DNA from: Thermoproteota archaeon
GTDB lineage: Archaea > Asgardarchaeota > Jordiarchaeia > Jordiarchaeales > Freyrarchaeaceae
Assembly (NCBI GenBank): GCA_029258835.1
Contig: JAPDJY010000053.1
Location: 1 to 64,000 of the forward strand
Length of the DNA: 64,000 nt
Reading direction: 5' to 3'
The stretch's first letter is position 1, and each line of letters opens with the position of its first letter. The position numbers and the translations under genes were made by a program. This document shows, piece by piece, positions 25,422-51,527 of this stretch. The notes beneath the pieces were generated by a model. That model was not told where the DNA came from, made no database searches, and was given only the letters and a program-made list of their open reading frames with translations.

Positions 25422-26936
25422 TTATGGCATTGACAGCCTACCTGGGTGCATGATGAAGTTCGGGTCAATAACCTCTCTAAACCGCCTTAAGAGGTCATAG
25501 TATGCCTTAGCCCTAGCAAACGTTAGCGGGGCATGCACGTACGGGTCAGGCCTATAGTTCAGCCACCCTTTATCGAGGAATATCTCCGTAGTGACGCGGT
25601 TCACCTCCTGCACACGACGCACATCCTCAGGATCAGTATAATCGAAGCATACGATAGGCATACAAATTGCCTGGCGGCAGTGGTCAATGCTGGCTATCCA
25701 CATAACCGGAGGGAAACCATACTCCTCCAGCTTCTGATTGTAAATCTCCGCGAATTCCGCACAGTTCTTCCATGGGGTATACCAGGTAATGAACAGGAAT
25801 CCGGCGTTCCATAGCGAGTATGGGATGGCGATCTTGTTTGGTTTGCGGAGCCTGCTTTGGATTTGCTTGGGGTGTAGCTTCCACTCCTTTATTTCGTGGC
25901 CTGTTTTCGCGTTGTATTCTTTGGCTAGTTCATGTATCTTGTTAACTGTGAAGTCGAGTTCTTCTTTGCTGTGGCACCAGATCTCGAAGTTCATCCACCA
26001 TCGGGGGATGCCGAGTTTCTTGTAGAACTCGTAGTCTGTTGGGACTTTCTCCTTAGGCCATCGGGTCATGACAAGGGGCCAGTTTCCTCCCTGCACCATT
26101 ACGAGGTGGTCTGCTATGCCTAGCTCGTACTTTGACACTTCTAGGGTGAAGTCTTGCATGTCGTATGGGTTGTCCATTCCATATGCAATTATTGTCTTGT
26201 GGTGTGGGTGGGGGACTATTTTTATTGCGAGCTTGGTGATGACGCCCATTGTGCCTTGGGCTCCTAGGAAGAGGCCGTCGAAGTTTGGTCCTAACCCCCA
26301 CCTGTAGAATGGCTTTGCTCCGGGTAGAGACCAGCTTCCGGTTCTGACTATTTCGCCTGTTGGGAGTACGATTTCCATGCCTAGTACCATGTCTGCCTGT
26401 GGGCCATACCTTGCTGTGACCATGCTGAATCCTCTTTCGAGGGCGTCGCCGACCACGGTTGCGGCTGGCGGTGCACCGTCGGGAACCGGGGGAGCCCAGT
26501 CTGGGTAGTATTCTTCAGGGCAACTGAGGGATATCCTCTATGTTGCCTTTCTGAAGTATGCCCAGACTTTGCCGCTTCTTACCCCCGGCTCCAGTACGGC
26601 GTATCTTGCGTCGGTGTTGACTTCTATTATGCGGTCCATTCGTGATAGGTCTAGTAGGATTCCTCCTGGCTGTACTAGGGGGGTTGCGTATCCGCCGCTT
26701 AGTCCTCCTGCGCATGGGGTTACGGGTATGTGGTTTTCATTTGCTAGGATCAGAATTTTTCTCACTTCTTCGACGTATCTGGGTCTCACGACTACTTCTG
26801 GTACTGTTGCTTCAAGCCCCATTATCCCTCTTGAGAGGTAACTGTACCGCATCGCGATGTCTGACGAGACGAACTCTTTCCCTACTATGCTTTCCAGCAT
26901 CTTTACGATGTCAGGTGTAACTTCATTATAACTCAC
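25422..26936 (-). CDS. FAD-binding oxidoreductase (GlcD/D-lactate dehydrogenase-like); two exons 26936-26549 and 26512-25422, 492 aa spliced
   Basis: PEVVVRP, GGILLDLSRMDRI, LEPGV / VLGMEIVLPTG, GAQGTMGVIT, DPNFIMHPG. The two same-frame ORFs join when a 36-nt BHB insert is removed. Confidence 0.85.
26513..26548 (-). other. Predicted BHB-type mRNA intron (36 nt)
   Basis: TCAG-AA^A-GGCAAC...GTTGCC-CTGA-AG^A; contains the in-frame TAG; spliced junction reads YFRKYYPDW. Confidence 0.8.
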
Positions 26937-27261
26937 AGGCTACTCCTCCAGGGGTTTTTCCATGCTGGTGAAATTTCAATTGAACATTTTACCTTCTATA
27001 TTTAAAGTTGTTGTTTTGATTTCCCGCTTCCCGAATCTTCATGTGGATGCTTAATTAACTCGGAGATGGAGCCATTAAAGTTTCGACTTTAAAAATCGTC
27101 TAAGGATGTATGAGGGTGTATTTTAAAAAAGATAAAAAATTTGGGGGTCTGAGTCCGGTTATCGCTAGCTTTCCATTTAACTATTTATTTTAGCCTTTTA
27201 AAAGTTGTGAAGGGTTCTGCTTGTTTTAGGGGGGGTTGCGGTTTGTTTTGCGTGTTGGGGG

Positions 27262-28689
27262 TTAGTCGCTTATGCCTGCGAGGCGTTTTACTATCTGCTT
27301 TTTCTCTTCAACATCGTAGGTTGCCATTATTGCTATTTCCTCCATTACAGGGGATCCTCCTCCGTGGACGTCTGCGACCGCCATTACTCCCCCAAGGGCT
27401 GAGCAGAGCATATCCGAGAGCAGTCTGAAGCACCTGTGGATGTTTTCCGGCGGGACTTCGGCTCTTCTAGATATGTACTTTTCCAGCAGGGGGCCTGTTT
27501 CAGGGTTTAGGAAGTCTTCCTCGTATGGTAGGGTTGCTGGAAGGCCTCCTGATAGGTCTGTTAGGATTTCTATGGCTGCGTGTGCATTTAGACCAGCGTG
27601 CCTTCTGCCAACGTTAGCGTATACGACGTTTGGCACGCAGGTTCCCGACCCGTACGTTTGCGACTTTACCGCCGAGGCGATTCCCGCCGCGTAGACTAGT
27701 TCGCTTAAGCTGACTAATTGGGCAAGCTTCGACCTCACGTGAGGCTTGTTCTCCACACCGTTGTAGTCCGACACTAAGGCGGCTGCCCCCATTATTATGT
27801 CGAACAGTGCAGGCTTACAGCCTGTGTAGCTGTGCCTGTGGAAAAGGGCGAAAAGGTGTGCTAGCAACCCTGCAAACTGCCATTCTCCGCACAGGAAGAC
27901 ACGTTCCCAGGGGACGAAGACGTCGTCGAATACCACAAACGAGTCGGCTGCTCCAACTTCAGCCAGGGGGGCCTTAAACTTTTTCCTCGGTCTAAACGAC
28001 GTTGCACGGGTGACTAGTTTTACGCCTTCAGTATCCGCGGGTATCGCGAATGAGACTGACCAGTCTCCATCATCCTTAGTCATCATCCTCGTGGGTAATA
28101 CTATGAGCTCGTCGGCGTAGGCGGCCATGGTTATGTGGTTCTTCGCCCCCCGAACTATTATTCCGTCATCTGTCTTCTTTACGATCCGCACGTAAAGGTC
28201 CGGGTCTTTCTGCTGGTGGGGGCGTAGGCTTCGGTCACCCTTAACGTCCGTTTGGGCTCCTGCAGCCACAAGGTCGTTTTTCTGGAAGTATTCAAGGTAC
28301 TTAAGGAACCTTTTATGGTACTCTGTTCCTAAGGCTTGGTCGACTTCATATGTTATTACCGAGAGGGCGTTTATTGCGTCACATCCCATGCACCTCTGTA
28401 TGCACCCACCGGTCAAGTGGCAAAGCTTCCTTATCATTTCCTGCTTTTTAAGGAGGTCCTCCGGGCTACGATTTATGTGTGTAAACCTGTTTATTTTCTC
28501 CCCCGTGAGATGTGAGGTTGCTACGAGCAGGTCTTTGAATTCGGGGTCGTCAACCAGCTCGAACGTTTTCGATATAACTCTTATCCCGCCTTGGAGGCGG
28601 GGGTCATCACGCTTAACTTTTTCTCCTCCAATGTAAACGTTCGGCTTCATTTTGTACAAGCTTTCTTGATATTCTTCAGGGGTACGCAT
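27262..28689 (-). CDS. 4-hydroxybutyryl-CoA dehydratase / HpaB-fold family protein
   Basis: CIQRCMGCD, QTDVKGDRS, RGAKNH, HRHSYTGCK (3 Cys + His Fe-S ligands), HGGGSP; ATG 28689 follows GGAGG. Confidence 0.88.
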   Translation of the reverse strand: MRTPEEYQESLYKMKPNVYIGGEKVKRDDPRLQGGIRVISKTFELVDDPEFKDLLVATSHLTGEKINRFTHINRSPEDLLKKQEMIRKLCHLTGGCIQRCMGCDAINALSVITYEVDQALGTEYHKRFLKYLEYFQKNDLVAAGAQTDVKGDRSLRPHQQKDPDLYVRIVKKTDDGIIVRGAKNHITMAAYADELIVLPTRMMTKDDGDWSVSFAIPADTEGVKLVTRATSFRPRKKFKAPLAEVGAADSFVVFDDVFVPWERVFLCGEWQFAGLLAHLFALFHRHSYTGCKPALFDIIMGAAALVSDYNGVENKPHVRSKLAQLVSLSELVYAAGIASAVKSQTYGSGTCVPNVVYANVGRRHAGLNAHAAIEILTDLSGGLPATLPYEEDFLNPETGPLLEKYISRRAEVPPENIHRCFRLLSDMLCSALGGVMAVADVHGGGSPVMEEIAIMATYDVEEKKQIVKRLAGISD

Positions 28690-28911
28690 TTCGAAGCCTC
28701 CTCTACCTCCCTGAGAATATGGCATATGACTATACTTAAAGGTTTTTCAGGCTTCAGCCAGAATGTAGCCTTTTGAGTTGAAGGGTGTAGAATAATGGTG
28801 TTTTAATGGAGAAGCTAGTGGGCAAAAGAAGGAGGAGTTATGCTTTTTTCCTGGAGAGAGGAGGAGGCAATGTAGAATTGCAGATTTTTAGTCTATTTGG
28901 ATGTAAGCGGA

Positions 28912-29241
28912 TTAAAGTATTCCGATCCAGTACTCTTCTCCGCCTTCTACGCTGAAAACGGTTGAAATCAGCCTGTTTTCCTCCTTTTTGCTTTCCAAGT
29001 ACATTGACTTTATCCTTATAATGTACGTTTCACCGCACTTATTGCACTTGACGGTGTAGTCCAAGGTTTCCAGTATGTTTTCGCCTGAAACCTCGTCGCT
29101 GCTTTTAAAATCTATTACATCTACTTCGTCCTTGCTTCCACATTTGAGGCATTCCTTTATCGTAATTGGCTCCATACCCCTTCTTCCTAAAGGGACGTAA
29201 ACCTTCGACGGCATGTTCTTTAGGGGTTTATCGTGCGACAT
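28912..29241 (-). CDS. Hypothetical zinc-binding protein
   Basis: CLKCG and CNKCG pairs; GGTG RBS. Confidence 0.65.
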   Translation of the reverse strand: MSHDKPLKNMPSKVYVPLGRRGMEPITIKECLKCGSKDEVDVIDFKSSDEVSGENILETLDYTVKCNKCGETYIIRIKSMYLESKKEENRLISTVFSVEGGEEYWIGIL

Positions 29242-29430
29242 CGCAACACCAACCTTTAAGGGGTCCCAATTGTTGATTGGGGAAGCACATAAATAAATCT
29301 TTACTTTACTTCACGTCAGCCCCTTTATTAGCGCGTGATGGGGGAATGAGGGAGATTAACTAATTGGATAATTTTTATTACCGTTAATGCTTTAGAATTA
29401 GGTTGTCTAGGAGTTCGAGAGGGGGCGGCT

Positions 29431-31941
29431 TTGCAGGCTGTCATAATGGCTGGAGGTAAGGGAACACGCCTTAGGCCTTTAACGGTTAACGTTCCCAAGC
29501 CGATAGTGCCTATAGTTGACGCTCCCATGCTGGAGCACACGATCAAGCTTCTTAAAAAGCATAATGTGAGGGACATCCTCGTCACCGTAAGCTACCTTGG
29601 AGACAAGATAAGAAGGTTTTTTGGGGATGGGTCAAGGTACGGTGTCAGGATCAAGTATTCTCATGAGGAGGAACCGCTGGGCACCGCAGGGGGGGTAAAA
29701 CTTCTAGAGGAACACATTGACGACACTTTCATCGTTCTGAGCGGGGACGTTTTAACCGACATGAACATAACTAGGCTGCTTGAAAGGCATAGGGAGAACG
29801 ATGCCATGGTTACCATAGCGTTGACGAGCGTGGATAACCCTGTTGCCTACGGCATAGTGGTAACGGACGAGAACGGGAGAATAAAAAGGTTTCTGGAAAA
29901 GCCCAGCTGGGGCGAGGTCTTCAGCGACATGGTCAACACGGGCACGTACATACTGGAGCCTGAAGTATTAGATTACATTCCAAGGAATAAGGAGTACGAT
30001 TTCAGCAAGGACCTTTTCCCTCGACTCCTTAAAGAGGGAAAGCGACTCTTCGGCCACCTAGTAAGGGAGTACTGGATCGACATAGGCACCCCCCAGAAGT
30101 ACATGCAAGCCCACTACGACATCCTCAGGGGTCAGGTTAACATAGAGATCCCCCACAGGCAAGTCAGGGAGGGAGTGTGGGTTGGGGAGGGAACGGAGCT
30201 TCCGGACGGATGCGAAATCCACCCGCCAGTCGTCATAGGAAGGTTCTGCAGGGTAGATGAGGGAGCGGTGATAGATAGGTTCAGCGTTATAGGTGGAGGA
30301 TGCTACGTGGCCGGAGAGGCGCGGGTGGCAAGATCCATTGTATGGGGGAACACATCCATACATAAAGGGTCACGTCTGCAGTCGTGCATCGTGGGGGCTA
30401 GGTGCGAGGTGGGAGAGGGAGCGCAGATTCTAGACGGTGCTGTTGTCGGGGACGACTGCATCTTTGGTCCGGGAGCGAGGGTGATGCCTAACGTTTACAT
30501 TTGGCCAAATAAGGTTGTGGAGAAGAACGCAGTAGTTAACATGAACCTGAAGTGGGGCGTGAGGTGGAAGAAGAGCCTTTTCACCGAGTATGGCATTTCA
30601 GGCCTCGTGAACATAGAGATTACACCCGAGTTCGCCACTAAGCTTGGAGCAGCATTCGCAACGTACCTAGGGGAAGGAGCAAACGTCATAGTAGGTAGGG
30701 ATACACATCTCGCATCACGCATGGTGAAGAGGGCGATAGTAGCAGGCTTGCAGTCCGCAGGGGTTAACGTTTACAACGTGAGAGTTCAGCCGGTTTCCAT
30801 AATAGAGGCGTCCATAACGTCTTACGGGGCTGACGGGGGAGTCTTCATTTCAATGTCTCAGAAGGAGGCTAACACGGTTTGCATTAGACTGTTCGATTCC
30901 GATGGGATCGACCTTGACAAGGCGCACCAGAAGAAGGTTGAGGACATATTCTTCAAGGAGGCGTTGAAGAGGATTGACCCGGGAAAGGTAGGAGACATAC
31001 TTTACCCGCAGGAAGCTATCGAGTCCTACTTTGAAAGGATAATACGGCATACTAATGAGGACATTTTAAAGGGAAGGAGGATGACGGTGGTGCTCGACTG
31101 CGGGGACGGATGTGCGTCTCTCACCGCTCCATTCTTTATGAGGGAGCTAGGATGCGACGTCGTAACGTTAAACGCTAACGTGGGAGCAGCCGTGCCGAAG
31201 AGGGAGCACAGGCCCATCACAGGCGCCGTCGAAAACCTAGCTAAAACCGTTAAGGCATTAGATGCAGACTTAGGCGTAGTTTTCGACGAGGACGCGGACC
31301 AGGTCTTATTTATCGACGATAAAGGTGAGCTGCTGGGTGGAGACATCGCCACAGCATTACTGGCTGTAAGCCAACTTGAACAGAAGGGCAGAGGTAAGGT
31401 CGTCGTCCCGGTAACCACGAGCCACGCAATAGACGAGGTGGTGAAGGAGTATGGGGGGGAAACTGTTAGAGTTAAACTCGGCTTCCGGCCAATCATAGAC
31501 ACCATCAGAAAGGTTAAGGGAGTTTTTGGCGGGGACGAAAGTGGCGGATACATTTTCCCCGAGGTATACCCCTTCAGGGATGGGCTGGTTGGGGCGGTTA
31601 AGCTTGCAGAGTTTATGGCGACGCGTGATGAGCCACTGTCAGAGCTGCGAAGGGAGGTTCCAGAATTTTACATGCTCAAACGCTCGGTGGAGTGTCCCCT
31701 AGAGCATAGAGGGGCATTAATGAGAAGCCTACTAGAGGGAACCCAGGGGCAAGTGTTTGACACTATAGATGGAATAAAGATTTACTTCGACTACGGATGG
31801 GTCCTCATAAGGCCCTCGTCCCATGACGCAACCCTAGACATTTTTTCAGAGGCGAAGACGCGTGAGCAAGCGAAGGAGCTACTTAACAGGCACGTGAGGG
31901 AAATAGAAAGGATACTATATGAGATCAGAAGTAGCATTTAG
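29431..31941 (+). CDS. Mannose-1-phosphate guanylyltransferase / phosphomannomutase-like fusion
   Basis: MAGGKGTRLRPLT..PKP, EPLGTAG, FLEKP, hexapeptide repeats, phosphohexomutase-like C-terminal half. Confidence 0.92.
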   Translation: MQAVIMAGGKGTRLRPLTVNVPKPIVPIVDAPMLEHTIKLLKKHNVRDILVTVSYLGDKIRRFFGDGSRYGVRIKYSHEEEPLGTAGGVKLLEEHIDDTFIVLSGDVLTDMNITRLLERHRENDAMVTIALTSVDNPVAYGIVVTDENGRIKRFLEKPSWGEVFSDMVNTGTYILEPEVLDYIPRNKEYDFSKDLFPRLLKEGKRLFGHLVREYWIDIGTPQKYMQAHYDILRGQVNIEIPHRQVREGVWVGEGTELPDGCEIHPPVVIGRFCRVDEGAVIDRFSVIGGGCYVAGEARVARSIVWGNTSIHKGSRLQSCIVGARCEVGEGAQILDGAVVGDDCIFGPGARVMPNVYIWPNKVVEKNAVVNMNLKWGVRWKKSLFTEYGISGLVNIEITPEFATKLGAAFATYLGEGANVIVGRDTHLASRMVKRAIVAGLQSAGVNVYNVRVQPVSIIEASITSYGADGGVFISMSQKEANTVCIRLFDSDGIDLDKAHQKKVEDIFFKEALKRIDPGKVGDILYPQEAIESYFERIIRHTNEDILKGRRMTVVLDCGDGCASLTAPFFMRELGCDVVTLNANVGAAVPKREHRPITGAVENLAKTVKALDADLGVVFDEDADQVLFIDDKGELLGGDIATALLAVSQLEQKGRGKVVVPVTTSHAIDEVVKEYGGETVRVKLGFRPIIDTIRKVKGVFGGDESGGYIFPEVYPFRDGLVGAVKLAEFMATRDEPLSELRREVPEFYMLKRSVECPLEHRGALMRSLLEGTQGQVFDTIDGIKIYFDYGWVLIRPSSHDATLDIFSEAKTREQAKELLNRHVREIERILYEIRSSI

Positions 31942-31942
31942 A

Positions 31943-32587
31943 CTATTTTTTGAGCGGGAGCGTGTTTGCGAGAGATTCAAGCAGCATGATCGCTGAAAGC
32001 TCGAAGAGTGCTCCTGGAGGCTCCAGCTCCCCGTAAACCGTACGTTCGATGAAGCTTCTCCCAGTCCTCTCTTCTCTTCCCTCAACCTTTAAAGTGAAGT
32101 CTGCCAAACTGCCAATAGTTGAGTTTGGATAGGAAGTTACGGCGACTATCCTACAGCCTATTTCCTTAGCAGTTCTAACGGCGGAAACAACTTCGTAGGT
32201 TTCTCCTGACCCGGAGATCGCTATGAGAAGGTCATCTGGCTCGACACGGGGAACAAGGTCGACCACGTCGAGGCCTACAAAGTGAACCTTATAGCCTTTG
32301 TTTAAAAGCCTGATCGCAAGAATTTTCCCCACGAACTCGGATCTCCCCCTTCCAACGATAAAAATTCTGGACGCTTTAGCGATTTCATCACCCATTCTCA
32401 CTAAGGCTTCATAGTTCACCTTCTCCAAGTTCTCCCGGATTCGTTCCATCATTTCTTCTACGTTCCCTTTAAGTTGCTGCTCAGACAACAAAAACGACAC
32501 CCCACTAAATCTCCCTTTAAACCTGAGAAGAATATAACTCTTACCGTCACCATGATGAGGGAAGGGCTGTATTTGAAGTGTTAACAT
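31943..32587 (-). CDS. SIS-domain protein (6-phospho-3-hexuloisomerase-like)
   Basis: GRGRS, AISGSGET, GALFELS; true start likely about 30 codons downstream. Confidence 0.85.
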   Translation of the reverse strand: MLTLQIQPFPHHGDGKSYILLRFKGRFSGVSFLLSEQQLKGNVEEMMERIRENLEKVNYEALVRMGDEIAKASRIFIVGRGRSEFVGKILAIRLLNKGYKVHFVGLDVVDLVPRVEPDDLLIAISGSGETYEVVSAVRTAKEIGCRIVAVTSYPNSTIGSLADFTLKVEGREERTGRSFIERTVYGELEPPGALFELSAIMLLESLANTLPLKK

Positions 32588-32669
32588 GATTGTGAAACTA
32601 AGGCGGACGCTAAGTTTATTTTCCAGATAGGATAGAAGTTAGGGTTGAAAAGTTTGTTGAGGGTAAGGG

Positions 32670-32960
32670 ATGAAGCTGGACGTGAGAAGCCTCTGCTCAA
32701 GACTTCCAACTTACTTCTCAAGATCTTATACTGAACATGTTTTCTCGGAGGAAATGAGGCTTATCAGGCCATTAGTTGAAGTTGAAGGTGCAGAGGAGGA
32801 GGGTGCAAGGGACGTGGTGGAAAGTTTAAGGGAGGAGTTTTACAGGTACATTGAACAGGTTATAGAGGGAGAGGGAGACGCGGATAGGGTTAAAGAGACA
32901 TTAATGAGGTATACTAACTGGGCTGTCTCTCAGCTCGGTAAGGTAGGAGTAGAAAAGTAA
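32670..32960 (+). CDS. Hypothetical protein
   Basis: ATG with RBS; abuts the downstream glycosyltransferase. Confidence 0.6.
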   Translation: MKLDVRSLCSRLPTYFSRSYTEHVFSEEMRLIRPLVEVEGAEEEGARDVVESLREEFYRYIEQVIEGEGDADRVKETLMRYTNWAVSQLGKVGVEK

Positions 32961-38371: not shown

Positions 38372-38935
38372 CTAGGGTATGCTCCTAAGGGTCGTGTATA
38401 TGGGGCCTTTAGGAGTTAGCTGGCTTCTCTTAAGCTTGACGGAGTCGATTGTTATTTCCCCAAGTTCCAGTCCTTTCATCCTTGAAAGCAGGGATGCAAG
38501 CTTTTCACGGTTATGGACGAACTTTACCCTAGCGATCGTCGCATGGGGGGTGAAGGGCCTACTTTCAGGCTTAAAGCCGAGGGGTTTCAGCTTCCGCTCT
38601 AACTCGTAAGCTATTGATTTAAGGTTCTCGCTTCCTTTACAGGCGCCAATCCATATCACGTTTACACGGCGAATACTTGGAAAACAGCCGACGCTGCAAA
38701 GCTCTAATCTAAACGGCTCGAAGGGTATGGTCTTCATAACTTCGTAAACTTTATCCACCATTTCACTTGAGATCTCCCCTAGGAACTTTAGGGTGAAATG
38801 CACATTTTCAAGCTCGACGAACTTGGCTTTAACTAGAGGGGAAAGGTCTTCCTGAACCTTTTTAATGGCATCCAGCACTTGAGGTGAGTCGACATCGACG
38901 GCTATGAAAGACCTAACCTTCTCCAACTTGGACAT
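38372..38935 (-). CDS. thpR: RNA 2',3'-cyclic phosphodiesterase (2'-5' RNA ligase, 2H family)
   Basis: RSFIAVD, HFTLKFLG, FTPHATIAR, LTPKGPIY. Confidence 0.93.
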   Translation of the reverse strand: MSKLEKVRSFIAVDVDSPQVLDAIKKVQEDLSPLVKAKFVELENVHFTLKFLGEISSEMVDKVYEVMKTIPFEPFRLELCSVGCFPSIRRVNVIWIGACKGSENLKSIAYELERKLKPLGFKPESRPFTPHATIARVKFVHNREKLASLLSRMKGLELGEITIDSVKLKRSQLTPKGPIYTTLRSIP

Positions 38936-39437
38936 CTCCCACCTGTTTACTTAAAACATCTAGGAGGACCTTTTCAAGGATGGTTACGAGTGCTTCAAGA
39001 GACTCTTCAACTTCAGGGGATAACTTCTCACCGAGGGCGCTCTTAGGCTGAACACCTACAAATATTACGTAGGCGTTAACCGTCTCCTGTAGGTACCTTG
39101 CAACCATAGAGAGAGGGGTGTGATGAGTTGAAAATGTTACTCCTCCTAAACTTGAGATGTCTGATGTTACCACCACGTCCCCGGGGCTACCGTTGAACTG
39201 GGCTGCATCCACGAAGACTACGTGGCTGGGTTCAAAACGCCTTAAAACACCTGTAAAGTTTTCAGGCATGGTTCCTGCTTCCACCACCAGAACGTTGGCA
39301 AGTTTTAAGCGTTTAAGCCTTCTGGCAACTTCAAGCCCCACCCGGTCGTCACCCTTGAGCTCGCTTCCCACGCCTACAATAGCCACCTTGACCGCGCCGT
39401 CCAACAGCTTCTTGAGAGCCTTTATCAAGCCTAACAC
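38913..39437 (-). CDS. hycI: Hydrogenase maturation peptidase (HycI-like)
   Basis: GVGSELKGDDRVG, GTMPEN, VDAA, STHHTPL, GVQP. Confidence 0.85.
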   Translation of the reverse strand: MLGLIKALKKLLDGAVKVAIVGVGSELKGDDRVGLEVARRLKRLKLANVLVVEAGTMPENFTGVLRRFEPSHVVFVDAAQFNGSPGDVVVTSDISSLGGVTFSTHHTPLSMVARYLQETVNAYVIFVGVQPKSALGEKLSPEVEESLEALVTILEKVLLDVLSKQVGDVQVGEG

Positions 39438-39501
39438 CCATAACTCCTTAACAAAGGAAACTTTAAAACCGTTTTTAACAAAGCTGATGACGGTGGCAGA
39501 A

Positions 39502-40083
39502 ATGGAGGAGAAAACAGAGGGAGAAAGTAGGGTTCAAGAGGAACTTAGAGAAGGAGAGGAAGAGGAGAAGGTTACCGGACTCTTAGTTGACGGCGATGTT
39601 GTGATCAACGAGAAAGACGCCGAGAAAATACATGGGAAAGGCTACGGAGAGTACGAGGAAGACGGGAAACTTCACCTAGCACCCGTAGAAGCACTCCTCC
39701 TAGCAGAAAGGGGGAGACTCGTGGTGCTGGATAGTGAAGGCAGGGAGCTCACATTTAAAGAATTAGCGAAGACCTTCACCCGGAAAGACCCTAAACTATG
39801 GACGCGGTACTTGGTTTACAGGGACCTGAGAAGCAGAGGGTATGTTGTTAAGCAAGGGTTCGGAGGGGGAATAGACTTCAGAGTTTACCCTAGAGGAAGT
39901 AAGGTCGGAGAGGAAGCTGCGAAAACGCTGATATACATAGTCACCGAGGGAAAACCGATAAACCTTAAGGAGCTAGACAGAGTAACCAAGCTCGCAGTAA
40001 GCATGAGGAAGAAGCTCACAATGGCGCTGATAAACAGGCAGGGTGACGTTGTATACTACAACGTGCTACAGATGACGTTTTAA
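39502..40083 (+). CDS. endA: tRNA-splicing endonuclease subunit (probably the structural/beta type)
   Basis: LAPVEALLL, YLVYRDLRSRGYVVK, DFRVY, RKKL; the expected catalytic His is not seen. ORF-track start 39157 overlaps hycI. Confidence 0.88.
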   Translation: MEEKTEGESRVQEELREGEEEEKVTGLLVDGDVVINEKDAEKIHGKGYGEYEEDGKLHLAPVEALLLAERGRLVVLDSEGRELTFKELAKTFTRKDPKLWTRYLVYRDLRSRGYVVKQGFGGGIDFRVYPRGSKVGEEAAKTLIYIVTEGKPINLKELDRVTKLAVSMRKKLTMALINRQGDVVYYNVLQMTF

Positions 40084-42610: not shown

Positions 42611-42743
42611 GGTGCCGGTAGCTCAGCCTGGGAGAGCGCAGGACTGTGGACTGGCAGGGGCAGGCAGTAAGTGGTAAAGCTGAATCCTGAGGTCGCGGGT
42701 TCGACATGGAGGTTTAGCTTCCACGAAAGTCCCGCCCGGCACC
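42611..42743 (+). tRNA. tRNA-His(GUG) with three BHB introns (42650-42669, 42671-42684, 42706-42729) and encoded G-1
   Basis: Acceptor GTGCCGG/CCGGCAC with G-1:C73, D stem GCTC/GAGC, anticodon stem CAGGA/TCCTG with GTG at 42646-42648, T stem GCGGG/CCCGC. CCA is not encoded; lies next to hisS. Confidence 0.93.
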
Positions 42744-42804: not shown

Positions 42805-44157
42805 TTGGTAGGGTTGTCCCGGCTTACGGGGGTGTTTGGGTCGGTTAAGTATAGGGTTCCACGAGGCTTCAGAGATTTCCCCCCAGAGGTAGCCATACTT
42901 AGGAAAAAAGTCATAGAGATCGTCGAGGATGTCTTTGAAAGGTTTGGTTTTGACCCGATCGAGACGCCGGTCATCGAGTATTGGGAGACACTTAAGGGAA
43001 AGTATGGTGATGAGGTTGAGTCCAAGCTACTTTACAGGTTTCAGGATCCCTGGAGCGAGGAGTGGTTGGCTTTAAGATATGATTTAACCGTTCCGCTAGC
43101 GAGGTTTGTGGCGAGCCACGCTCCCCCCCTACCCTTTAAAAGGTATCATATTGGGCGTGTTTGGAGGCATGAGAGGCCACAGAGGGGAAGGTACAGAGAG
43201 TTTTGGCAGTGTGACGCTGACATAGTAGGTTCACCTTACCCTGAAGCAGACGCGGAAGTCATCGATGTGATGTGTGAGGTAATGAAGGCCCTAAGCTATA
43301 AGCGTTTCAGGGTGAGACTTAACGACAGGAGGATGCTTAGAGGGGTCTTCGAGGAGGAACTTAGAATATCAAAGTACGGGGACGAGAAAACCCTAGAAGT
43401 TTTCAGGGCAATAGACAAGCTTGACAAGATAGGAAGAGAAGGCGTCAGGGAGGAACTCCTGAGGACAGGGTTGAAAGGAGGTGAAGTCCAAAAAATAATG
43501 GAAACGGTGGAGGTTTCAGGAGAGCCGGAGGAAACCTTACAGTTCGTTGAGGAACGGTTCGGAGGAAACGAGAACATTAAGGCAGCGCTAAGCCACCTTT
43601 CAGGCATACTTGATAACTTAACTCATAAGGGGAAGGTGACCGTGGATCTGAGCATGGTTAGGGGGCTGGACTACTATACGGGCCCCATCTTCGAAACCTA
43701 CATTGAGGAGCCAAAGATAGGGGCTCTGGCTGGGGGAGGACGCTACGATGACCTAATAGAAAGGTATGGTGGACCGAGAACGCCGTCAACAGGTGTAAGT
43801 ATTGGAATAGAGAGGGTAATAGATGCAGGGCTTGAGCTCGGAATGTTCAGCCTTAACCAAAAAACGAAAACTAAAGTTTTTGTCGTTAATATGGGATTAG
43901 AGCAGCGAGGCTACGCCCGGAAAGTAGCTGAGGAAATTAGGAAAAGCGGATTAACAGTGCAGGTAGACCTTATGAGGAGAAGCTACAGGAAGCAGCTCGA
44001 GTACTGTGACAAGAAGGGAATACCATACTTAGTGTTTATAGGAGATAGGGAAACGCGAACGGAAACAGTAACTCTCTACATAAAGAGCACGGGGGAAAGA
44101 TATGAGGAAATACCCCTCCAACAGGCGGTAGAAGTCATGCTAAGGAAGAGCCGCTAG
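42805..44157 (+). CDS. hisS: Histidine--tRNA ligase
   Basis: PRGFRDF, LRYDLTVPLAR, WRHERPQRGRYREFWQCDAD, RGLDYYTG, GGGRYD. Confidence 0.97.
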   Translation: MVGLSRLTGVFGSVKYRVPRGFRDFPPEVAILRKKVIEIVEDVFERFGFDPIETPVIEYWETLKGKYGDEVESKLLYRFQDPWSEEWLALRYDLTVPLARFVASHAPPLPFKRYHIGRVWRHERPQRGRYREFWQCDADIVGSPYPEADAEVIDVMCEVMKALSYKRFRVRLNDRRMLRGVFEEELRISKYGDEKTLEVFRAIDKLDKIGREGVREELLRTGLKGGEVQKIMETVEVSGEPEETLQFVEERFGGNENIKAALSHLSGILDNLTHKGKVTVDLSMVRGLDYYTGPIFETYIEEPKIGALAGGGRYDDLIERYGGPRTPSTGVSIGIERVIDAGLELGMFSLNQKTKTKVFVVNMGLEQRGYARKVAEEIRKSGLTVQVDLMRRSYRKQLEYCDKKGIPYLVFIGDRETRTETVTLYIKSTGERYEEIPLQQAVEVMLRKSR

Positions 44158-44387
44158 CACGGAAACATCCTCCGACGGGAGAATCTGGAAAGCTGGCGAA
44201 TCCACCTTTAATCCACCTTTAAGTAGACATTTCAACCTTGAGTCCTTCTTTGAAGGGTGAAAGGTTTTGGACATTGCTGGAGGCAGAGGTGAAGCAATAA
44301 ATTTATTTATTTTTCGGTTGAAAGGGTGAAGCGGAGTCACCATTTGATATGCGCGGCGCAAAAGTTTAAAAAATAAACTAGAGATAA

Positions 44388-45692
44388 TTGATCATGAAGA
44401 GGATGAGAGAAATGGAGGATCTAAAAGCCCTTAAAAAAGAGCTCTTCAGGTGTATTCACTGTAAGGCGTGCATGTTTTCCTACTCAGGTGAGCCAGACAA
44501 GCAAGGTATAGGCGAGTACCAAGGGATGCTCTACGAAGGCATGATTGAGGGGTGCCCTTCAGGAGCCTACAACATGCTCTGGGAAGGTTACCTGAACAGC
44601 GGTAGAATGTGGATTCTAAGGGCCATAATGGAAGGAGAACTTGAACCTAATGAGAGCGTAAGAGACCTAATATTTCCGTGTCCGACGTGTGGGAACTGTC
44701 AAGCCCAGTGCGAGAACAAGATACCAACCGTTGAGCTGATCGAGGCTGCTAGGGCGGCATGCGTCGAGGCAGGTGTTCCATTGCTACCTAAGCATGCTGC
44801 GATGGGCAAGTTCACCGAGGAGCTGAACAACCCCTACGGGGAGAAGCACGAGGAAAGAACGAAGTGGCTTGAGGGCACCGGGATCAAGACGAAGAAAGAC
44901 GCTAAGATCGCGTATTTCGTGGGTTGCACGGCTTCATACAGGCAAAAGCACGTGGCTAAGGCCACCGCTGAGCTGCTTAATAAGCTCGGTGTTGAATTTG
45001 CAGTACTTGAGGAGGAAGTATGCTGTGGCTCACCGCTCTTCAGAACTGGTCAGAGGAAGATCGCTAAGAGGGTTATGGAGGAGAACTTGAAGACTTTTAA
45101 AGACTATGACGTGTTGCTGTTCAGCTGTGCAGGATGCTACAGGACCTTCAGGGTGGACTACCCGAAGTTTACCGGGGAGAAGTTGCCATTCACACCCAAG
45201 CACACTCTAGAATACGTAGCGGAGCTACTTGACCAAGGTAAACTGGAGTTTAAGAGGGAGTTTAAGAAGAAAGTTACATGGCACGACCCTTGCCACCTGA
45301 TGAGGCACGTCGCCCTTGACTTAGAGCGTAGAGAGCTGGCTAAAAGCAGCAACTGGTTCGTGGACGAAAGAGAAATTAAAAAGAAGAAGGAAGAATGGTA
45401 CGAGCTTCCAAGAAAGATCCTCAGGGCTATTCCAGGAGTAGAGCTTGTCGAAATGTACAGGATTAAGGAGGATGCGTGGTGCTGTGGCTCAGGCGGCGGC
45501 GTGAAAGCACAATATCCAGACTTAGCCCTTTGGACAGCGTTAGAAAGGATTAAAGAGGCAGAGGCTACAGGAGCAGAGGCCATAGTGACGAGCTGCCCAT
45601 TCTGCATCAGAAACCTAGGTGACGCCGTCGCTGCGGGCGGATCAAAACTTGAAGTCTTAGAGCTACTCGAAATACTCAACGAGATTATTTAA
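44388..45692 (+). CDS. HdrD/GlpC-like Fe-S protein with CCG domains
   Basis: CIHCKAC, CPTCGNC, FVGC, CCG, CAGC, HDPCHL, CCGSGGG, CPFC. Confidence 0.9.
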   Translation: MIMKRMREMEDLKALKKELFRCIHCKACMFSYSGEPDKQGIGEYQGMLYEGMIEGCPSGAYNMLWEGYLNSGRMWILRAIMEGELEPNESVRDLIFPCPTCGNCQAQCENKIPTVELIEAARAACVEAGVPLLPKHAAMGKFTEELNNPYGEKHEERTKWLEGTGIKTKKDAKIAYFVGCTASYRQKHVAKATAELLNKLGVEFAVLEEEVCCGSPLFRTGQRKIAKRVMEENLKTFKDYDVLLFSCAGCYRTFRVDYPKFTGEKLPFTPKHTLEYVAELLDQGKLEFKREFKKKVTWHDPCHLMRHVALDLERRELAKSSNWFVDEREIKKKKEEWYELPRKILRAIPGVELVEMYRIKEDAWCCGSGGGVKAQYPDLALWTALERIKEAEATGAEAIVTSCPFCIRNLGDAVAAGGSKLEVLELLEILNEII

Positions 45693-45879
45693 AAACCCTT
45701 AAGACTCCTTTCTTTTTTCTCTTTTTAGAGCCCACAGCCAACAGATAGGGAAGCCAGTTAGCTTTGTTTTGGGATTAACGTTCGTAAACATTTTTATTTT
45801 TTGCCATTAGCTGTTTTTGAAGGTTTTCTCAAAGCAAATGATGTGTTCACTTGCAATTATAGCCTTTGAGGTGGTTTGA

Positions 45880-47022
45880 TTGGTGAAAAAGTATAGGATT
45901 GCTGTTCTTCCTGGTGACGGAGTTGGACGCGAGGTCATCCCTGAAGCCCTAAAGGTTTTGGATTCGGCTGCGGAGGCTGTGGGAGGCTTAGATTTCGACT
46001 ACGTGGAGGTTCCATGCGGCGGCAAGTACTACTTGGAGACGGGGTTAGAGTGGCCTGACGACGGGTTTGAAACGTGCAGGGGAGCTGACGCGATACTCTT
46101 CGGGGCGGTTGGGTGGCCTAAGGCCGTCTTGCCCGGCGGACAGCTGGCAGGGATAGGCATACTCTTAGACCTCAGGTTTGGGCTGGATCTTTACGCTAAC
46201 GTTAGGCCGGCGAAACTTTACGATGGGGTCGAGTGCTTCGTTAAGGGTAAAAAGGCGGGGGACGTGGACTTCGTCATCGTCCGGGAGAACACGGAGGGGC
46301 TTTACGCCCCCATTAGAGGAAGCCTTGAAAGGGGAGGTAAACGTGAGGTGGCTGTAGACGTCAGGGTTTTAACTAGGAAAGGTTGTGAAAGGGTGATAGA
46401 CTACGCTTTTAGACTATGCCTTTCGAGGATGGGGGCGGCCGTCGACGGGAAGCGTAGGGTGACGTGTGTTGATAAGAGCAACGTGCTTGAAGGGTGTAGG
46501 TTTTTCAGGAAGGTTTTTGACGAAGTTGCTGAAAAGTATGGAAGCATTGAGAAAGATTATGTTTACGTTGACGCCATGACCCAGTGGATGATTAGGACGC
46601 CGGAAAGGTATGATGTGATCGTTACAACTAACATGTTCGGGGACATCCTCTCAGACCTATCATCCGTGTTGATAGGAGGGATGGGCATGGCTCCCAGCGG
46701 CAACGTGGGGGATGAGCACGCAATGTTCGAGCCGGTACATGGCAGCGCACCTGACATAGCTGGCAGGGAGGTGGCGAACCCCATAGGAGCCATCCTCTCG
46801 GCTAAGATGATGCTTGAGTGGCTTGCCCAAAAGCACAAGGATGAAGCTTGCAGAAAAGCTGCTGAAGCAATAGAGAGGGGGGTAGCAGACGTACTTGCCG
46901 ATGGAAAAATTAGGACGCAAGACCTCTGCTATGGAAGATACGCCGACGTTAAGCCCAGCAAGACAAGTGCGGTGGGAGACGCCATAGCCCAAAGGATACG
47001 TAATGGAAAACCAGCCTATTAA
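45880..47022 (+). CDS. Isocitrate/isopropylmalate dehydrogenase family (LeuB-like)
   Basis: PGDGVGREV, DLYANVRP, RENTEGLY, DKSNV, NMFGDILSD, FEPVHGSAPDIAG. Confidence 0.92.
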   Translation: MVKKYRIAVLPGDGVGREVIPEALKVLDSAAEAVGGLDFDYVEVPCGGKYYLETGLEWPDDGFETCRGADAILFGAVGWPKAVLPGGQLAGIGILLDLRFGLDLYANVRPAKLYDGVECFVKGKKAGDVDFVIVRENTEGLYAPIRGSLERGGKREVAVDVRVLTRKGCERVIDYAFRLCLSRMGAAVDGKRRVTCVDKSNVLEGCRFFRKVFDEVAEKYGSIEKDYVYVDAMTQWMIRTPERYDVIVTTNMFGDILSDLSSVLIGGMGMAPSGNVGDEHAMFEPVHGSAPDIAGREVANPIGAILSAKMMLEWLAQKHKDEACRKAAEAIERGVADVLADGKIRTQDLCYGRYADVKPSKTSAVGDAIAQRIRNGKPAY

Positions 47023-47226
47023 TTGTCAGCTCTACCGAGGAGGTTAAACCGAGAGGGACGCCTAACTGCTTGTTAGATTTGGAGGGGCCAATGGGTTCCC
47101 GCTTTTCGGCGCTTGGAAGGTTAACTTTAAATGCTTCCTGTACCTTGAAGTTGTGCTGCACAATTAAACTGTTTAATTTAAGGAAGAGGTTGCAGCACAT
47201 TTTTAGAGTTAAGGAGGGCTGCCTGA

Positions 47227-48515
47227 ATGGGGATGACTATTTCGGAGAAGATCTTAGCGTCCCACTCGGGAAAGGAGAGGGTTGAGCCGGGTGAGATAGT
47301 TAATGCTAAGGTTGACGTGGCGATGGTCCACGAGATGCTTGGAAACCCGGCGCCTTGACGGGCTGGGCTAAACTGCGCATAGCAGACATCTACGAGGAAC
47401 TCGGCGTTGATCGCGTCTGGGATCCGAAGAAGATAGTCGCGTTGATAGACCACTGGACGCCTGCTCCAAGCATAGATGCTGCTGTTATCCATGTAACCTG
47501 CAGAAGGTTCGTTGAAAAGTATGGTGTTGAGAACTGGCTTGACATGAGAGAGGGTATATGCCACGTTGTGCTTCCTGAGAAGGGGTTTGTTAAACCCGGA
47601 GACCTTGTTGTTGGAAGTGATTCCCACACGACGACCTACGGAGCCGTTGGAGCGTTCGCTACGGGAATAGGCGCCACCGACATGGCTATTGTGCTCGCTA
47701 CGGGTGAACTCTGGTTTAGGGTTCCGTCAACGGTGAAGTTTAACATTACAGGTAGGCTTCAGCCGCTGGTTATGGGCAAGGACATAATCCTTCACATTAT
47801 AGGTGAGATAGGAGTAGATGGGGCGACCTACAAGGCGATGGAGTTCTCGGGCGAGGTTGTGAAGGAGCTCAGCATGGATGGAAGGTTCACTCTCTGCAAC
47901 ATGGCTGTAGAGGCGGGAGGGAAAGCAGGCATAATAGAGCCGGATGAAAAGACGATAGAGTGGGTTAAGGCAAGGGTCAGCCAGCCGTTCAATCCGGTCA
48001 TGAACGACCCTGACGCAGAATACGAGGAGGTCATAGACGTTGATGTTTCAGGGCTGGAGCCACAGGTGGCTAAGCCGCCAAGCCCCCAGAACACGGTGCC
48101 CGTATCGGAAGTGGAAGGGACAAAGATAGACCAAGCCTTCGTCGGGTCATGCACTAACGGTCGGCTTGAAGACCTGAGAGCGGCTGCCAAGATACTTAAA
48201 GGCAGGAAGGTCGCAAGAAACGTAAGAGCTATAATAATACCGGCCTCGAAGGAAACCTACCTAGCGGCGATGAGGGAAGGCCTCATAGAAACGTTCTTGG
48301 AAGCAGGGTGCGTAGTCTGTAATCCGACGTGTGGCCCCTGCATAGGCGCCCACCTAGGACTTCTAGCACCAGGGGAAGTTTGCATATCATCATCCAACCG
48401 TAACTTCGTTGGAAGAATGGGAAGCAAGGACGCATGGATCTATCTTGCATCGCCAGCAACGGTAGCTGCATCAGCAGTAACAGGCGAAATAACAGACCCA
48501 CGTAACTTTGTCTAA
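47227..48515 (+). CDS. leuC: 3-isopropylmalate dehydratase/homoaconitase large subunit; two exons 47227-47344 and 47374-48515, 419 aa spliced
   Basis: [11 protein letters not shown]...VDVAMVHE is in one frame. [32 protein letters not shown] and [10 protein letters not shown] are in another. The frames join when a 29-nt BHB insert is removed. Confidence 0.9.
47345..47373 (+). other. Predicted BHB-type mRNA intron (29 nt)
   Basis: TGC-TTGG-AA^A-CCCGGC...GCTGGG-CTAA-AC^T-GCG; spliced junction reads [16 protein letters not shown]. Confidence 0.88.
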
Positions 48516-48644
48516 CCAGCAGGGGGCGGGAAGGCGGGGAACCCATCGCTTCACCAGCGTAGAGGCAGAGTTTCACCTACTATCTTCGAGCTGGCGGAGA
48601 TAGGGAAATAGGAAAAAGGAGGGGTTTAGAAGGCTGCTTTTTAC

Positions 48645-49442
48645 TTATTCCTCTATTATGGCTACCGCCCTGCACCAGCCTGCTGAGCCACCCTTCACCT
48701 TCACCGGGAAGCATGCAACCTTGAAGCCATATGGCTTCTTTAGGGTGTCGTAGAGGTAATCTAGGTTTGCCAGCTTCTCTATGTGAAGGTAGGTTTTCTC
48801 TCTGCCCACGTAGTGGGCTTCCCATATTATGCTTGGGTCTCCCGTCTTTTCATAGTCAGCTTTTATAGCCCAGAATGGCCTATCCCATCCCCAAGCGTCA
48901 ATCCCAACAACTCTGACCCCTTGCTCTATGAGCCATAAAGTGGCCTCCCTAGTCATTCCGCATCCAGCGTTTAAGTACTCCTGTTTACCCCATAACTTGT
49001 CTGCACCCGTCATTATCATCACTATGTCTCCTGGCTTAATCTTATAATTTATCTTTTCAAGTGCTTCCTTTAGGTCCTCAACTGTTATCCCGGAACCCTG
49101 CGGCTTATGCCTCATGTCTAGTATGACGCCGTCGCCGTAACACCATTCTAAGGGGATCTCGTCGATCGTCTTTGCAGGCTTCCCCTCGCTTGTCGGGGCG
49201 TAGTGCCAAGGAGCATCCAAGTGGGTGCCGTGGTGGGTTGAAAGTTTATTGATCGTGTCGTCAGCCCACCCCAACCCGTCTGGCAGATCCTCTTCCTTGC
49301 ACCCGAAGACGAAGCTCATCAATTTTGCGCCTTCCTTATGGTCTCGGTGGATAACTTCAGGCGGGAAAAACTCGCTTGGAACGGACTCTATGGGAACACT
49401 TAAGTCTACTATTCGAACTCTACCCAAGAAGAATCCCTCCAA
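48645..49442 (-). CDS. Cyclase family (kynurenine formamidase-like) metal hydrolase
   Basis: HHGTHLDAPWH, GIDAWGWD, IEKLANL, GGSAGWCRAVA. Confidence 0.9.
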   Translation of the reverse strand: MEGFFLGRVRIVDLSVPIESVPSEFFPPEVIHRDHKEGAKLMSFVFGCKEEDLPDGLGWADDTINKLSTHHGTHLDAPWHYAPTSEGKPAKTIDEIPLEWCYGDGVILDMRHKPQGSGITVEDLKEALEKINYKIKPGDIVMIMTGADKLWGKQEYLNAGCGMTREATLWLIEQGVRVVGIDAWGWDRPFWAIKADYEKTGDPSIIWEAHYVGREKTYLHIEKLANLDYLYDTLKKPYGFKVACFPVKVKGGSAGWCRAVAIIEE

Positions 49443-49593
49443 GCATCATTGTATAGTTTTTTAACTAGAAACATATGTAAATTCTTTTTCCTTAGGAGAA
49501 AGGAGGAGTCTCGCTTACCCGATGATGAAGGCGTTCTAGAGAGGACACGCTCCTTCGCCGCGAAAAGGCTTTAGAGTTAAATGTGGAATAAGA

Positions 49594-50862
49594 TTGTTGA
49601 AGGTGGTGAATTGTTTGAGTGAAAGTGAAGCCTTCAGTTTTGTTGAGAAGTTTAAGGATGAGGGTGTCCGCCTTCTCAAAGATCTGATTAAAATCAACAC
49701 CGTCGTTCCTCCAGGCAATAACTACGAGGAGATGGTTGACTTTCTTGAGCCGATCTTTTCAGAGTTAGGCTTTGAAACGGAGAGGGTCGTCGTCCCAGAG
49801 GAGAAGGTTAGGGAGATCCCTTTCCCCCTAGAGGGTCCACGGGTGAACCTTGTAGCGAGGAGAGGGAAGGGTAAGCCTCCATTAACGCTTTACGCCCACA
49901 TGGACGTTGTACCCGTGGAGGAGGAGTGGAGTGTCCCCCCGTTCGAAGGCGTGGTCAAGAATGGCAGGATCTACGGGCGTGGGGCAGCTGACATGAAGGG
50001 GTTCATAGCAACAGTCCTCCTTGCCCTCAAGGTGATCCATGAACTTGGATTGGAACCAAATTATGACTTGACGTGTGTGATGTGCACGGATGAGGAAATA
50101 GGTGTCTACCCGGGAGTATACTACTTAGCAGATAAAGGGTACATTAAAGGGGATGTCATATGTGGTGAGGCAGCTCACGGGATAATAGGTATAGGAACAG
50201 CGGGAGCTGTCCAGTTCAAGGTTACAGTTAAGGGGAAGTCCGCTCACACCATGATGTTCTTCGCGGCGGTCAACGCTGTGGAGAACACGGTTCCAATACT
50301 TGAAGAGCTGCTGAAGCTTAAGGAAAAGGTCATGGAGAGGAGGTCAGAGGTCCCAAGCATACCCACACCACTCGGCGACAAAATGATGCCCTTATTCTCC
50401 ATTAACATAATATCTGGTGGAGTTAAGGAAAACGTTATTCCAAGCGAGTGCAGGTTCGCCGTCGACCGCCGATATATACCGGAGGAGGACGAGGAGGAGG
50501 TCATATCCGAGTTTATGGACGCCATAGAGGCTGGAAAGGCGAGGAGTAAAGCCCTATCGGTGGAAGTAAACGTCATAAGGTCATACAAGCCGTTTAAGAC
50601 GACGACTGATAATCCGATCGTCAAGAAGCTGGCGGCGGCGGTGAAGCACGTAACAGGAAATGACCCGCTGTTCATTGGAGCGTCAGGATCAACAGACATG
50701 GGGTATGTCGCAGAGAAAGGACATAACATAGCGATAATGGGTGTAGGAGACCTCATGTCCAACTTCCACGGGGCAGACGAAAGCATAAAGATAGAAGACA
50801 TGCTCAACTATGCCAAAGAGCTGATTCACCTACTCTGCTTCCAAGAAGAGCAATCCACGTAA
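49594..50862 (+). CDS. M20 ArgE/DapE-family deacylase
   Basis: HMDVVP, GRGAADMKG, DEEIG, GKSAH, NVIP, FHGADE. Confidence 0.92.
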   Translation: MLKVVNCLSESEAFSFVEKFKDEGVRLLKDLIKINTVVPPGNNYEEMVDFLEPIFSELGFETERVVVPEEKVREIPFPLEGPRVNLVARRGKGKPPLTLYAHMDVVPVEEEWSVPPFEGVVKNGRIYGRGAADMKGFIATVLLALKVIHELGLEPNYDLTCVMCTDEEIGVYPGVYYLADKGYIKGDVICGEAAHGIIGIGTAGAVQFKVTVKGKSAHTMMFFAAVNAVENTVPILEELLKLKEKVMERRSEVPSIPTPLGDKMMPLFSINIISGGVKENVIPSECRFAVDRRYIPEEDEEEVISEFMDAIEAGKARSKALSVEVNVIRSYKPFKTTTDNPIVKKLAAAVKHVTGNDPLFIGASGSTDMGYVAEKGHNIAIMGVGDLMSNFHGADESIKIEDMLNYAKELIHLLCFQEEQST

Positions 50863-50884
50863 AAAATAGAGAAAGTTGGTGTTT

Positions 50885-51527
50885 CTAGAGAGTAATGTTT
50901 AGATACTGCATGATTTGAGGCGCCAGGAGTCCGAGAAGGCCTCCTGATTCAGCTTGCCATGAGAAGGTGAGGTAAGCTATCAGCGCTATGCATGCGCCAC
51001 AGAGCACAATGTTAACCGCATGGTTGTCGTAGCGCAGCTTAGCAAGGCGCAGGTCTCGCTCGTGATCCCATAGGAATGCTCTGAGACTTTCCTGCTTCCG
51101 GGGGAGGATGTAAGGCAGCGTCCTCACCCCGGTCGGATTTGCCCCCATCAAGGTTTAGGCTGTCCGCTAGCCAGTGTGAGAAGACTGCTGCGGCTGCGAT
51201 AGCGAAGTATTGAGGGACGAAGTAGCCTATCAGGAGTGGCAGCCAGATAAGTGTTAGAATACTGTGGAGCAACCCTGACCTGTGCATTACCCTTTCTCTT
51301 TTCAGAAGCTGATCTAAGTCGGGTATGATTCCGAAGAAGCCGCCCGCGGCAAGTGCTGGGACGGCGCCTGATAGGGCAAGCTGAACCTGCCACGTGGAGC
51401 TGTACCTTGAAAGATCCATCAGTGTTTGCAGCTGGGAGAGCAGTGAGCCTTTAAGCTCAGGCGATACGAAGGATATCACGAGAGCTGCTGCGGCTGCTCC
51501 CAATATAATGTGCGTGTACTTCTGCAT
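50885..51527 (-). CDS. Membrane-bound metal-dependent hydrolase (YdjM/DUF457-like); two exons 51527-51155 and 51138-50885, 208 aa spliced
   Basis: YTH, IPDLD, HRSGLLHS, SHWLADSLN|PTGV; the family motif is completed only after removing a 16-nt insert. Confidence 0.85.
51139..51154 (-). other. Predicted BHB/BHL-type mRNA intron (16 nt)
   Basis: CGGACA-GCCT-AA^A-CC-TTGAT-GG-GGGC-AA^A-TCCG; spliced junction reads ADSLNPTGV. Confidence 0.8.

Follow-up and report, generated by a model that had tools for sequence, protein, structure and literature searches.

Interrupted Genes in the Window

The stretch of DNA analysed here, called the window, comprises 64,000 nucleotides (nt) of contig JAPDJY010000053.1 (positions 1 to 64,000; assembly GCA_029258835.1). 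Three protein-coding genes in it, encoding a GlcD-like FAD-binding oxidase (site 1), a LeuC/HacA-like dehydratase large subunit (site 2) and a YdjM-family membrane hydrolase (site 3), are each interrupted by a short insert resembling the bulge-helix-bulge (BHB) introns of archaeal transfer RNA (tRNA) and ribosomal RNA (rRNA). The window also carries a gene for a splicing endonuclease subunit and an interrupted tRNA-His gene (Table 1). The inserts had been proposed from the letters of the window alone, and both their coordinates and their helix and bulge structure were borne out by reading the sequence and by folding. The genome to which the window belongs (G000) has a size of 2.72 Mb in 91 contigs and is approximately 95% complete. 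Its Asgard affiliation, surmised in the same sequence-only reading, was confirmed, with Candidatus Jordarchaeum sp. as the closest record of the LeuC exon (85% identity) and with the public protein records of its relatives named Jordarchaeales or Jordarchaeaceae.

Table 1. Features of the window and short inserts found elsewhere in the genome (C numbers denote contigs of the genome; positions without a contig refer to the window; aa, amino acids).
Feature	Position	Strand	Description
FAD-binding oxidase (GlcD-like)	25422..26936	-	exon 1 26549-26936, exon 2 25422-26512; spliced 493 aa
Predicted intron 1	26513..26548	-	36 nt, relaxed BHB (HBh'), in-frame TAG
EndA-family splicing endonuclease subunit	39157..40083	+	308 aa; ~135-aa N-terminal extension, then N and catalytic domains; Pfam tRNA_int_endo_N, tRNA_int_endo
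Interrupted tRNA-His (anticodon GUG)	42611..42743	+	34-nt excess 42650-42683 (anticodon loop); 24-nt BHB T-loop intron 42706-42729
LeuC/HacA-like 3-isopropylmalate/homoaconitate dehydratase large subunit	47227..48515	+	exon 1 47227-47344, exon 2 47374-48515
Predicted intron 2 (LeuC)	47345..47373	+	29 nt, strict hBHBh'; also among the 13 inserts of the outgroup comparison
YdjM-family membrane metal-dependent hydrolase	50885..51527	-	exon 1 51155-51527, exon 2 50885-51138; spliced 208 aa
Predicted intron 3	51139..51154	-	16 nt, minimal BHB; this genome only
Insert, dnaG-like	C1:127680-127710		31 nt
Insert, radical SAM	C19		55 nt
Insert, radical SAM	C1:136638-136664		27 nt
Insert, rpl44e-like	C27:13051-13079		29 nt
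Insert, EF-1alpha	C27:28832-28874		43 nt
Insert, aIF2-gamma	C27:26080-26109		30 nt
Insert, cbf5	C27:11929-11955		27 nt; within codon of catalytic Asp (GTL-DP)
Insert, SAH hydrolase	C4:24354-24376		23 nt
Insert, PIMT	C8:8772-8796		25 nt
Insert, LeuD-like	C2:1897-1923		27 nt
Insert, gene without identification	C12		27 nt
Insert, gene without identification	C8:63575-63604		30 nt

Structure and Predicted Excision of the Inserts

Each of the three inserts showed a central helix of 4 base pairs (bp) with two 3-nt bulges on opposite strands. The 5' bulge was AAA at all three sites, as had been noticed before, and it was AAU, AAG, ACA, AGA, AUA or CAU at other introns of the genome. Flanking helices were present at every site, with both at site 2, the inner one only at site 1, and a 2-bp inner and an offset outer helix at site 3. 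At site 1, the central helix UCAG/CUGA with bulges AAA and AGA was followed by a 6-bp inner helix (GGCAAC/GUUGCC), and the region folded far better than shuffled sequence (z = -4.6). Site 2 combined a 3-bp outer helix (UGC/GCG), a central helix UUGG/CUAA, bulges AAA and ACU and a 6-bp inner helix (CCCGGC/GCUGGG), so that the RNA reads UGC-UUGG-AAA-CCCGGC...GCUGGG-CUAA-ACU-GCG. At site 3, the central helix was GCCU/GGGC with AAA in both bulges, and the outer helix CGGA/UCCG was offset by 2 nt.

A cut after the second base of each bulge, which is the rule of the splicing endonuclease EndA, had been said to restore the reading frame exactly in all three genes. The resulting join matched intron-free orthologs at all three sites, but at site 1 the restoration of the frame is trivial because 36 nt is a multiple of three; excision there removes 12 codons including the in-frame TAG, without a frameshift. 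At site 2 excision shifts the reading frame and joins the frames of both exons, while at site 3 it produces SHWLADSL-N-PTGVR within the 208-aa protein. The further claim that the genes are otherwise intact held, since a second disabling mutation was looked for in the three genes and none was seen. In the oxidase gene the Pfam FAD_binding_4 domain is split, exon 1 covering positions 1-80 of the profile and exon 2 positions 93-139. Exon 2 of LeuC matched Pfam Aconitase (E = 7.5e-107) and its exon 1 aligned with the N-termini of homologs, and exon 1 of the YdjM gene had a Pfam YdjM match. The exon-exon junction peptides predicted for the three genes are HEMLGMR, YFRKYYPDWAPP and ADSLNPTGVR, with YFRKYYPDW also given as a predicted junction peptide beside the first and the last of these.

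Orthologs and Covariation

Comparison with orthologs showed that the edges of the gaps coincide to the base with the predicted cut sites in all three genes. Nine genomes from two families carry the LeuC insert, all of them at one position; it measures 29 nt in four genomes of the window genome's family (f1) and 30 or 33 nt in five genomes of the sister family (f2), where the inserts are in frame yet hold many stop codons. In LeuC homologs of other Asgard families, a single codon separates the two exon peptides, which is what the predicted join calls for. In the alignment of the nine LeuC introns, 95.7% of the structure cells were paired compared to 24-38% in controls with slid partners, compensatory changes on both sides were present in 6 of 13 pairs, and the covariation score was reached by none of 500 shuffles.

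The oxidase insert was present in all five f1 genomes with lengths of 36, 24, 22, 27 and 29 nt. These five inserts have a common stem, GGCAA[C/U]...[G/A]UUGCC, with a variable loop, and the stem includes a C-G to U-A change among the relatives. Some of them shift the frame and some contain TGA or TAG, and all are bounded by the same join. The f2 orthologs are without an insert and read TTCAGAAAACACTAC, which is the exact exon 1-exon 2 join, in open frames of 492-513 aa. For the YdjM gene, database orthologs were 207-208 aa long, and the closest of them, 89% identical, is intact.

The sequence-only reading had also supposed that such introns are hidden by annotation, and the LeuC records agree with this. 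All 42 public LeuC records of Jordarchaeales consist of exon 2 only (334-390 aa) and are annotated as normal enzymes with the first 40 residues missing, while LeuC homologs of less than 66% identity have 415-422 aa. A protein database search with the spliced LeuC found no near-identical full-length protein, and so no spliced contig of the gene.

Probable Introns across the Genome

For a wider comparison, open reading frames (ORFs) of the complete 1.42-Mb outgroup genome G011 were searched against the window's genome, and an insert was called where contiguous outgroup residues were separated by extra DNA. Among approximately 770 comparable genes, 13 short inserts were found, and all 13, LeuC included, had a BHB at the exact length (Table 1). 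The joins restored invariant motifs, namely GHVDHG-KSTL in EF-1alpha, GHVDHG-KTTL in aIF2-gamma, GTL-DP in cbf5 and CNLRCP-ICF in a radical SAM gene (hyphens mark the join). A motif scan added several more, of which the more convincing are an AIR-synthase-like gene (C82) and a glutamine amidotransferase gene (C43) in which GICGG-FQ is restored. The idea of such introns throughout the genome is supported. In the chance control, the motif needed the exact length, three or more Watson-Crick pairs in the central helix and an inner helix of 3 bp or longer, with 13 registers allowed; it was found at 13 of 15 confirmed insert sites, compared to 0.7% when places were drawn at random from the genome or inserts were shuffled. 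Scaling from 13 introns per approximately 770 genes suggests several dozen introns in the whole genome, a rough estimate and probably too small, since the method misses exons that are short or poorly conserved.

Three other candidates of the outgroup comparison (C42:503, C13:59717 and C14:9563) lacked a BHB and may be gene ends, and a candidate at approximately 38950 of the window proved to be the junction of two different genes (HycI protease and LigT-like). When 400 kb of G001, a sister genus, were compared by a method that misses short exons, no short intron difference emerged, only a 196-nt repeat insertion.

The introns in mRNA (messenger RNA) tend toward the most conserved catalytic motifs: two P-loops, two radical SAM CxxxCxxC motifs, GTLDP and GICGGFQ. 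This placement may reflect a detection bias of the homology search or a real site preference. EF-1alpha and aIF2-gamma, which are paralogous GTPases, carry their introns at the same P-loop position (GHVDHG-K) with the same central helix (CGGC/GCCG) and an AAU bulge, while the intron interiors differ. The EF-1alpha intron was found in none of the 29 relatives examined, and the pair may hint at how the introns spread.

The 196-nt insertion belongs to a family of structured repeats of approximately 200 nt with at least 23 full-length copies of 82-90% identity, located at 52315-52521 of the window, on contig C40 (approximately 1620-1826) and in at least 21 other places. Each copy has GCC before it and finishes with ...CAAGCGTGAACCCC. 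On C40, the copy lies as a 196-nt insert inside a coding gene; two other genomes have nothing at exactly that place, and no BHB was recognised at its ends. Insertion beside a fixed short target with no duplication would resemble that of miniature elements derived from IS200/IS605.

RNA Evidence

EF-1alpha was chosen for the RNA comparison as the gene most likely to be expressed, and the comparison covered its contig stretch (L130) with metatranscriptome runs X18 and X19 and DNA run X1. The search for exon-exon junctions in metatranscriptomes, which had been recommended as a check, was directed at this stretch and gave a single EF-1alpha junction. In one X19 contig, L130:15759 was joined to 15803, and the skip equals the predicted 43-nt intron with a 2-base slide from the repeated AA. 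A joint with the same 43-nt skip was looked for in DNA run X1 and none was found. X18 RNA from the same sample gave an unspliced contig across the intron, which has the 15642 A>T variant in common with the spliced contig, and EF-1alpha is single-copy in the window genome. The RNA contigs on L130 gave no cover across the introns of cbf5, aIF2-gamma and the rpl44e-like gene. DNA run X1 also had three joints that skip 3975, 85 and 145 nt; their sides are short, and they were rejected as they look like other organisms or repeats.

Splicing Machinery and tRNA Genes

The endA subunit that had been recognised in the window was confirmed by its Pfam domains. A second EndA-family subunit of 190 aa is encoded on contig C1, so that the genome has two EndA-family genes along with one gene for RtcB and one for archease. 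Asgard EndA reportedly has the (alpha-beta)2 form, with a loop that gives a broad substrate range (PMC5829648). A gene for a LigT-like 2H phosphoesterase of the 2',5' RNA ligase family (window 38372-38935, minus strand) adjoins the endA gene on the opposite strand.

The tRNA-His gene had been described as holding three introns, which is borne out in part. Its 24-nt T-loop intron is a clear BHB (central helix UUCG/CGAA, bulges ACA and AGU) of the same architecture as the mRNA introns, and the anticodon loop has a 34-nt excess that may comprise the other two. A search of the window with ARAGORN and Rfam found no tRNA, tRNA-His included; the gene emerged only when 181 bases were searched alone, where the Rfam tRNA model gave 17.6 bits, a score under its cut-off, and showed a 37-nt insertion. 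On the whole genome, ARAGORN detected only 25 tRNA genes, nearly all with odd introns and most with introns at unusual positions, and most tRNA genes of this approximately 95% complete genome are evidently too interrupted for detection. This number fits the report of approximately two intervening sequences per tRNA gene in the same family (bioRxiv 10.64898/2026.10.13.758758).

Interpretation and Alternative Explanations

We interpret the inserts as EndA-type BHB introns of mRNA, with the pathway of tRNA and rRNA introns applied to messengers, and assign this reading a probability of about 0.86. It is supported by the structure, the exact ortholog gaps, the covariation and the pattern of presence and absence among relatives. 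Confidence is high for sites 1 and 2 and moderate for site 3. The YdjM intron is the weakest of the three cases because it is found in this genome alone; it would be young or unique, and could be a recent disabling insertion. In the proposed pathway, the gene would be transcribed with its insert and the end of the 5' exon would pair with the 3' end of the intron into the 4-bp helix between two 3-nt bulges. The splicing endonuclease, here an EndA of two subunits, one of them encoded in the window, would then cut after the second base of each bulge, RtcB assisted by archease would join the exons, and the joined mRNA would encode the full-length enzyme. The pathway would act on dozens of genes in this Jordarchaeales genome, with introns gained and lost between close relatives.

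Several observations weigh against this interpretation. The outer helix is practically absent at site 1, which gives it the relaxed HBh' form, and the inner stem at site 3, as read from the letters, has just 2 bp. The YdjM insert is confined to one genome, as none of eight orthologs has it (their sequence is ...TTTAAC CCG..., against CTAA, the 16 nt and AT CCG in the window). The RNA comparison covered L130, and removal was seen there for the EF-1alpha intron alone, in one contig with a depth of 2.5 and 9 mismatches in 35 nt. Because of these nine nearby mismatches to the reference, the spliced contig is attributed to a related strain. It could reflect an intron-free allele of a slightly different strain, which is conceivable because relatives of other genera are without the EF-1alpha intron. 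EndA and RtcB as the acting enzymes, and splicing of the three window introns in vivo, are predictions. Finally, a loose-BHB scan of the whole genome, in which removal had to fuse coding ORFs and shifted cuts served as controls, showed no clear enrichment because approximately 2000 same-strand gene-gene junctions swamp the signal; neighbouring motifs can also rescue the shifted-cut controls. An excess (63 sites vs 30-43) was confined to motifs that combine an AAA bulge with a length up to 60 nt, and filters on folding energy and paired fraction gave no improvement of the scan.

The inserts might instead mark real gene damage, that is, pseudogenes or small mobile DNA insertions which are not removed and leave the genes dead or truncated. 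Site 3, unique to this genome and with an intact closest ortholog, would suit this explanation, as would the repeat family of approximately 200 nt, one copy of which lies in a coding gene and has no BHB that could be recognised. However, the insert of site 1 persists in 5 genomes and that of site 2 in 9, both exons being intact and the helices showing compensatory changes, no second disabling mutation was seen in the three genes, and the same kind of insert lies inside the catalytic motifs of the single-copy EF-1alpha gene and of aIF2-gamma and cbf5, all of which makes gene damage an improbable account of the set. That the insert stays in the mRNA and is dealt with in translation, by programmed frameshifting, by bypassing as in T4 gene 60 or by recoding of the site 1 TAG as pyrrolysine, hardly deserves credence. 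Introns of cbf5 were at an early stage taken wrongly for sites of frameshifting (PMC2738675), and the insert at site 1 keeps the frame and holds one TAG, but the insert lengths of 22, 24, 27, 29 and 36 nt at one site, the use of TGA, TAA or TAG and the several stops in the f2 LeuC inserts speak otherwise; the length classes, frame shifts and stop codons of the oxidase inserts in particular are hard to reconcile with any of these mechanisms. Moreover, matched take-off and landing codons were not visible at site 2, intron-free orthologs have no extra residues at the places of the inserts, and the EF-1alpha insert is physically missing from one RNA contig.

Removal at the RNA level could also be due to another nuclease or ligase in place of EndA and RtcB, or to self-cleavage. 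The action of EndA and RtcB is predicted from sequence, and the LigT-like gene next to endA would offer a candidate for a different route. Such a route appears very improbable, as the motif and the cut positions are exactly those by which EndA substrates are defined, the T-loop intron of tRNA-His in the window is built alike, and EndA, RtcB and archease are all encoded in the genome.

Relation to Known Splicing Systems

In HAC1/XBP1 splicing of eukaryotes, an mRNA is spliced in a cytoplasmic-type reaction, independently of the spliceosome, by an endonuclease and a tRNA ligase (RtcB in metazoa). There, IRE1 cuts in two hairpin loops of one regulated target under stress. The inserts described here are similar in that removal of a short intron changes the reading frame and in that an endonuclease and a tRNA ligase, here predicted, would be used. 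They differ by the BHB motif, with the cut sites in 3-nt bulges and not in hairpin loops, and by their many targets. No sign of regulation was found, and the suggestion that the introns form a regulatory layer is left unsupported.

The closest precedent is the BHB intron in the cbf5 pre-mRNA of Crenarchaeota, reportedly the subject of work by Watanabe in 2002 and Yoshinari in 2006. This intron disrupts the codon of a catalytic residue, and archaeal pre-mRNA splicing had been confirmed for no gene other than cbf5 (Yokobori 2009, PMC2738675). The 27-nt BHB intron in cbf5 of the present genome lies in the same catalytic Asp codon. As with the crenarchaeal cbf5 introns, those found here are partly in frame and partly not, are gained and lost among relatives and are often mis-annotated (PMC2738675); unlike them, they occur in ordinary metabolic and membrane genes, in many genes of one genome and in an Asgard lineage.

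In Jordiarchaeia and Atabeyarchaeia, tRNA genes are heavily interrupted by BHB introns (PMC11291895; bioRxiv 10.64898/2026.10.13.758758), and neither of these two papers mentions introns in protein-coding genes. The motif, the cut rule and the size range are the same as in archaeal tRNA and rRNA introns, and introns have been gained repeatedly in these same lineages, but the host RNA here is a messenger. A full-text literature search, with subscription journals outside its coverage, turned up no account of BHB introns in protein genes of Asgard archaea. The mechanism is a known one, and its scale and lineage are undescribed in the literature searched.

Significance

In the literature, archaeal mRNA splicing has been a curiosity of one gene, cbf5. 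The present results point to a close relative of the eukaryotic ancestor that would need its tRNA-splicing machinery for many ordinary and essential genes. A bolder proposal, which we regard as possible but doubtful, is that tRNA-type splicing in Jordarchaeales is routine and obligatory for dozens of mRNAs, including those of EF-1alpha, aIF2-gamma, cbf5 and dnaG, and that the introns are still spreading. Since EF-1alpha and aIF2-gamma share the P-loop position, the CGGC/GCCG helix and the AAU bulge, and since the EF-1alpha intron is absent from all of the 29 relatives examined, the pattern would suggest that introns copy into places where the exon sequence is able to pair with an intron's 3' end, by reverse splicing or paralog conversion. 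If the introns are obligatory and spreading, expression of the translation apparatus would depend on the activity of EndA and RtcB. In public records of these lineages, such genes are truncated or split in a systematic way, which biases metabolic reconstructions and completeness estimates. Gain and loss of the introns between genera would also offer a natural system for studying how coding genes are invaded by introns that need no spliceosome.

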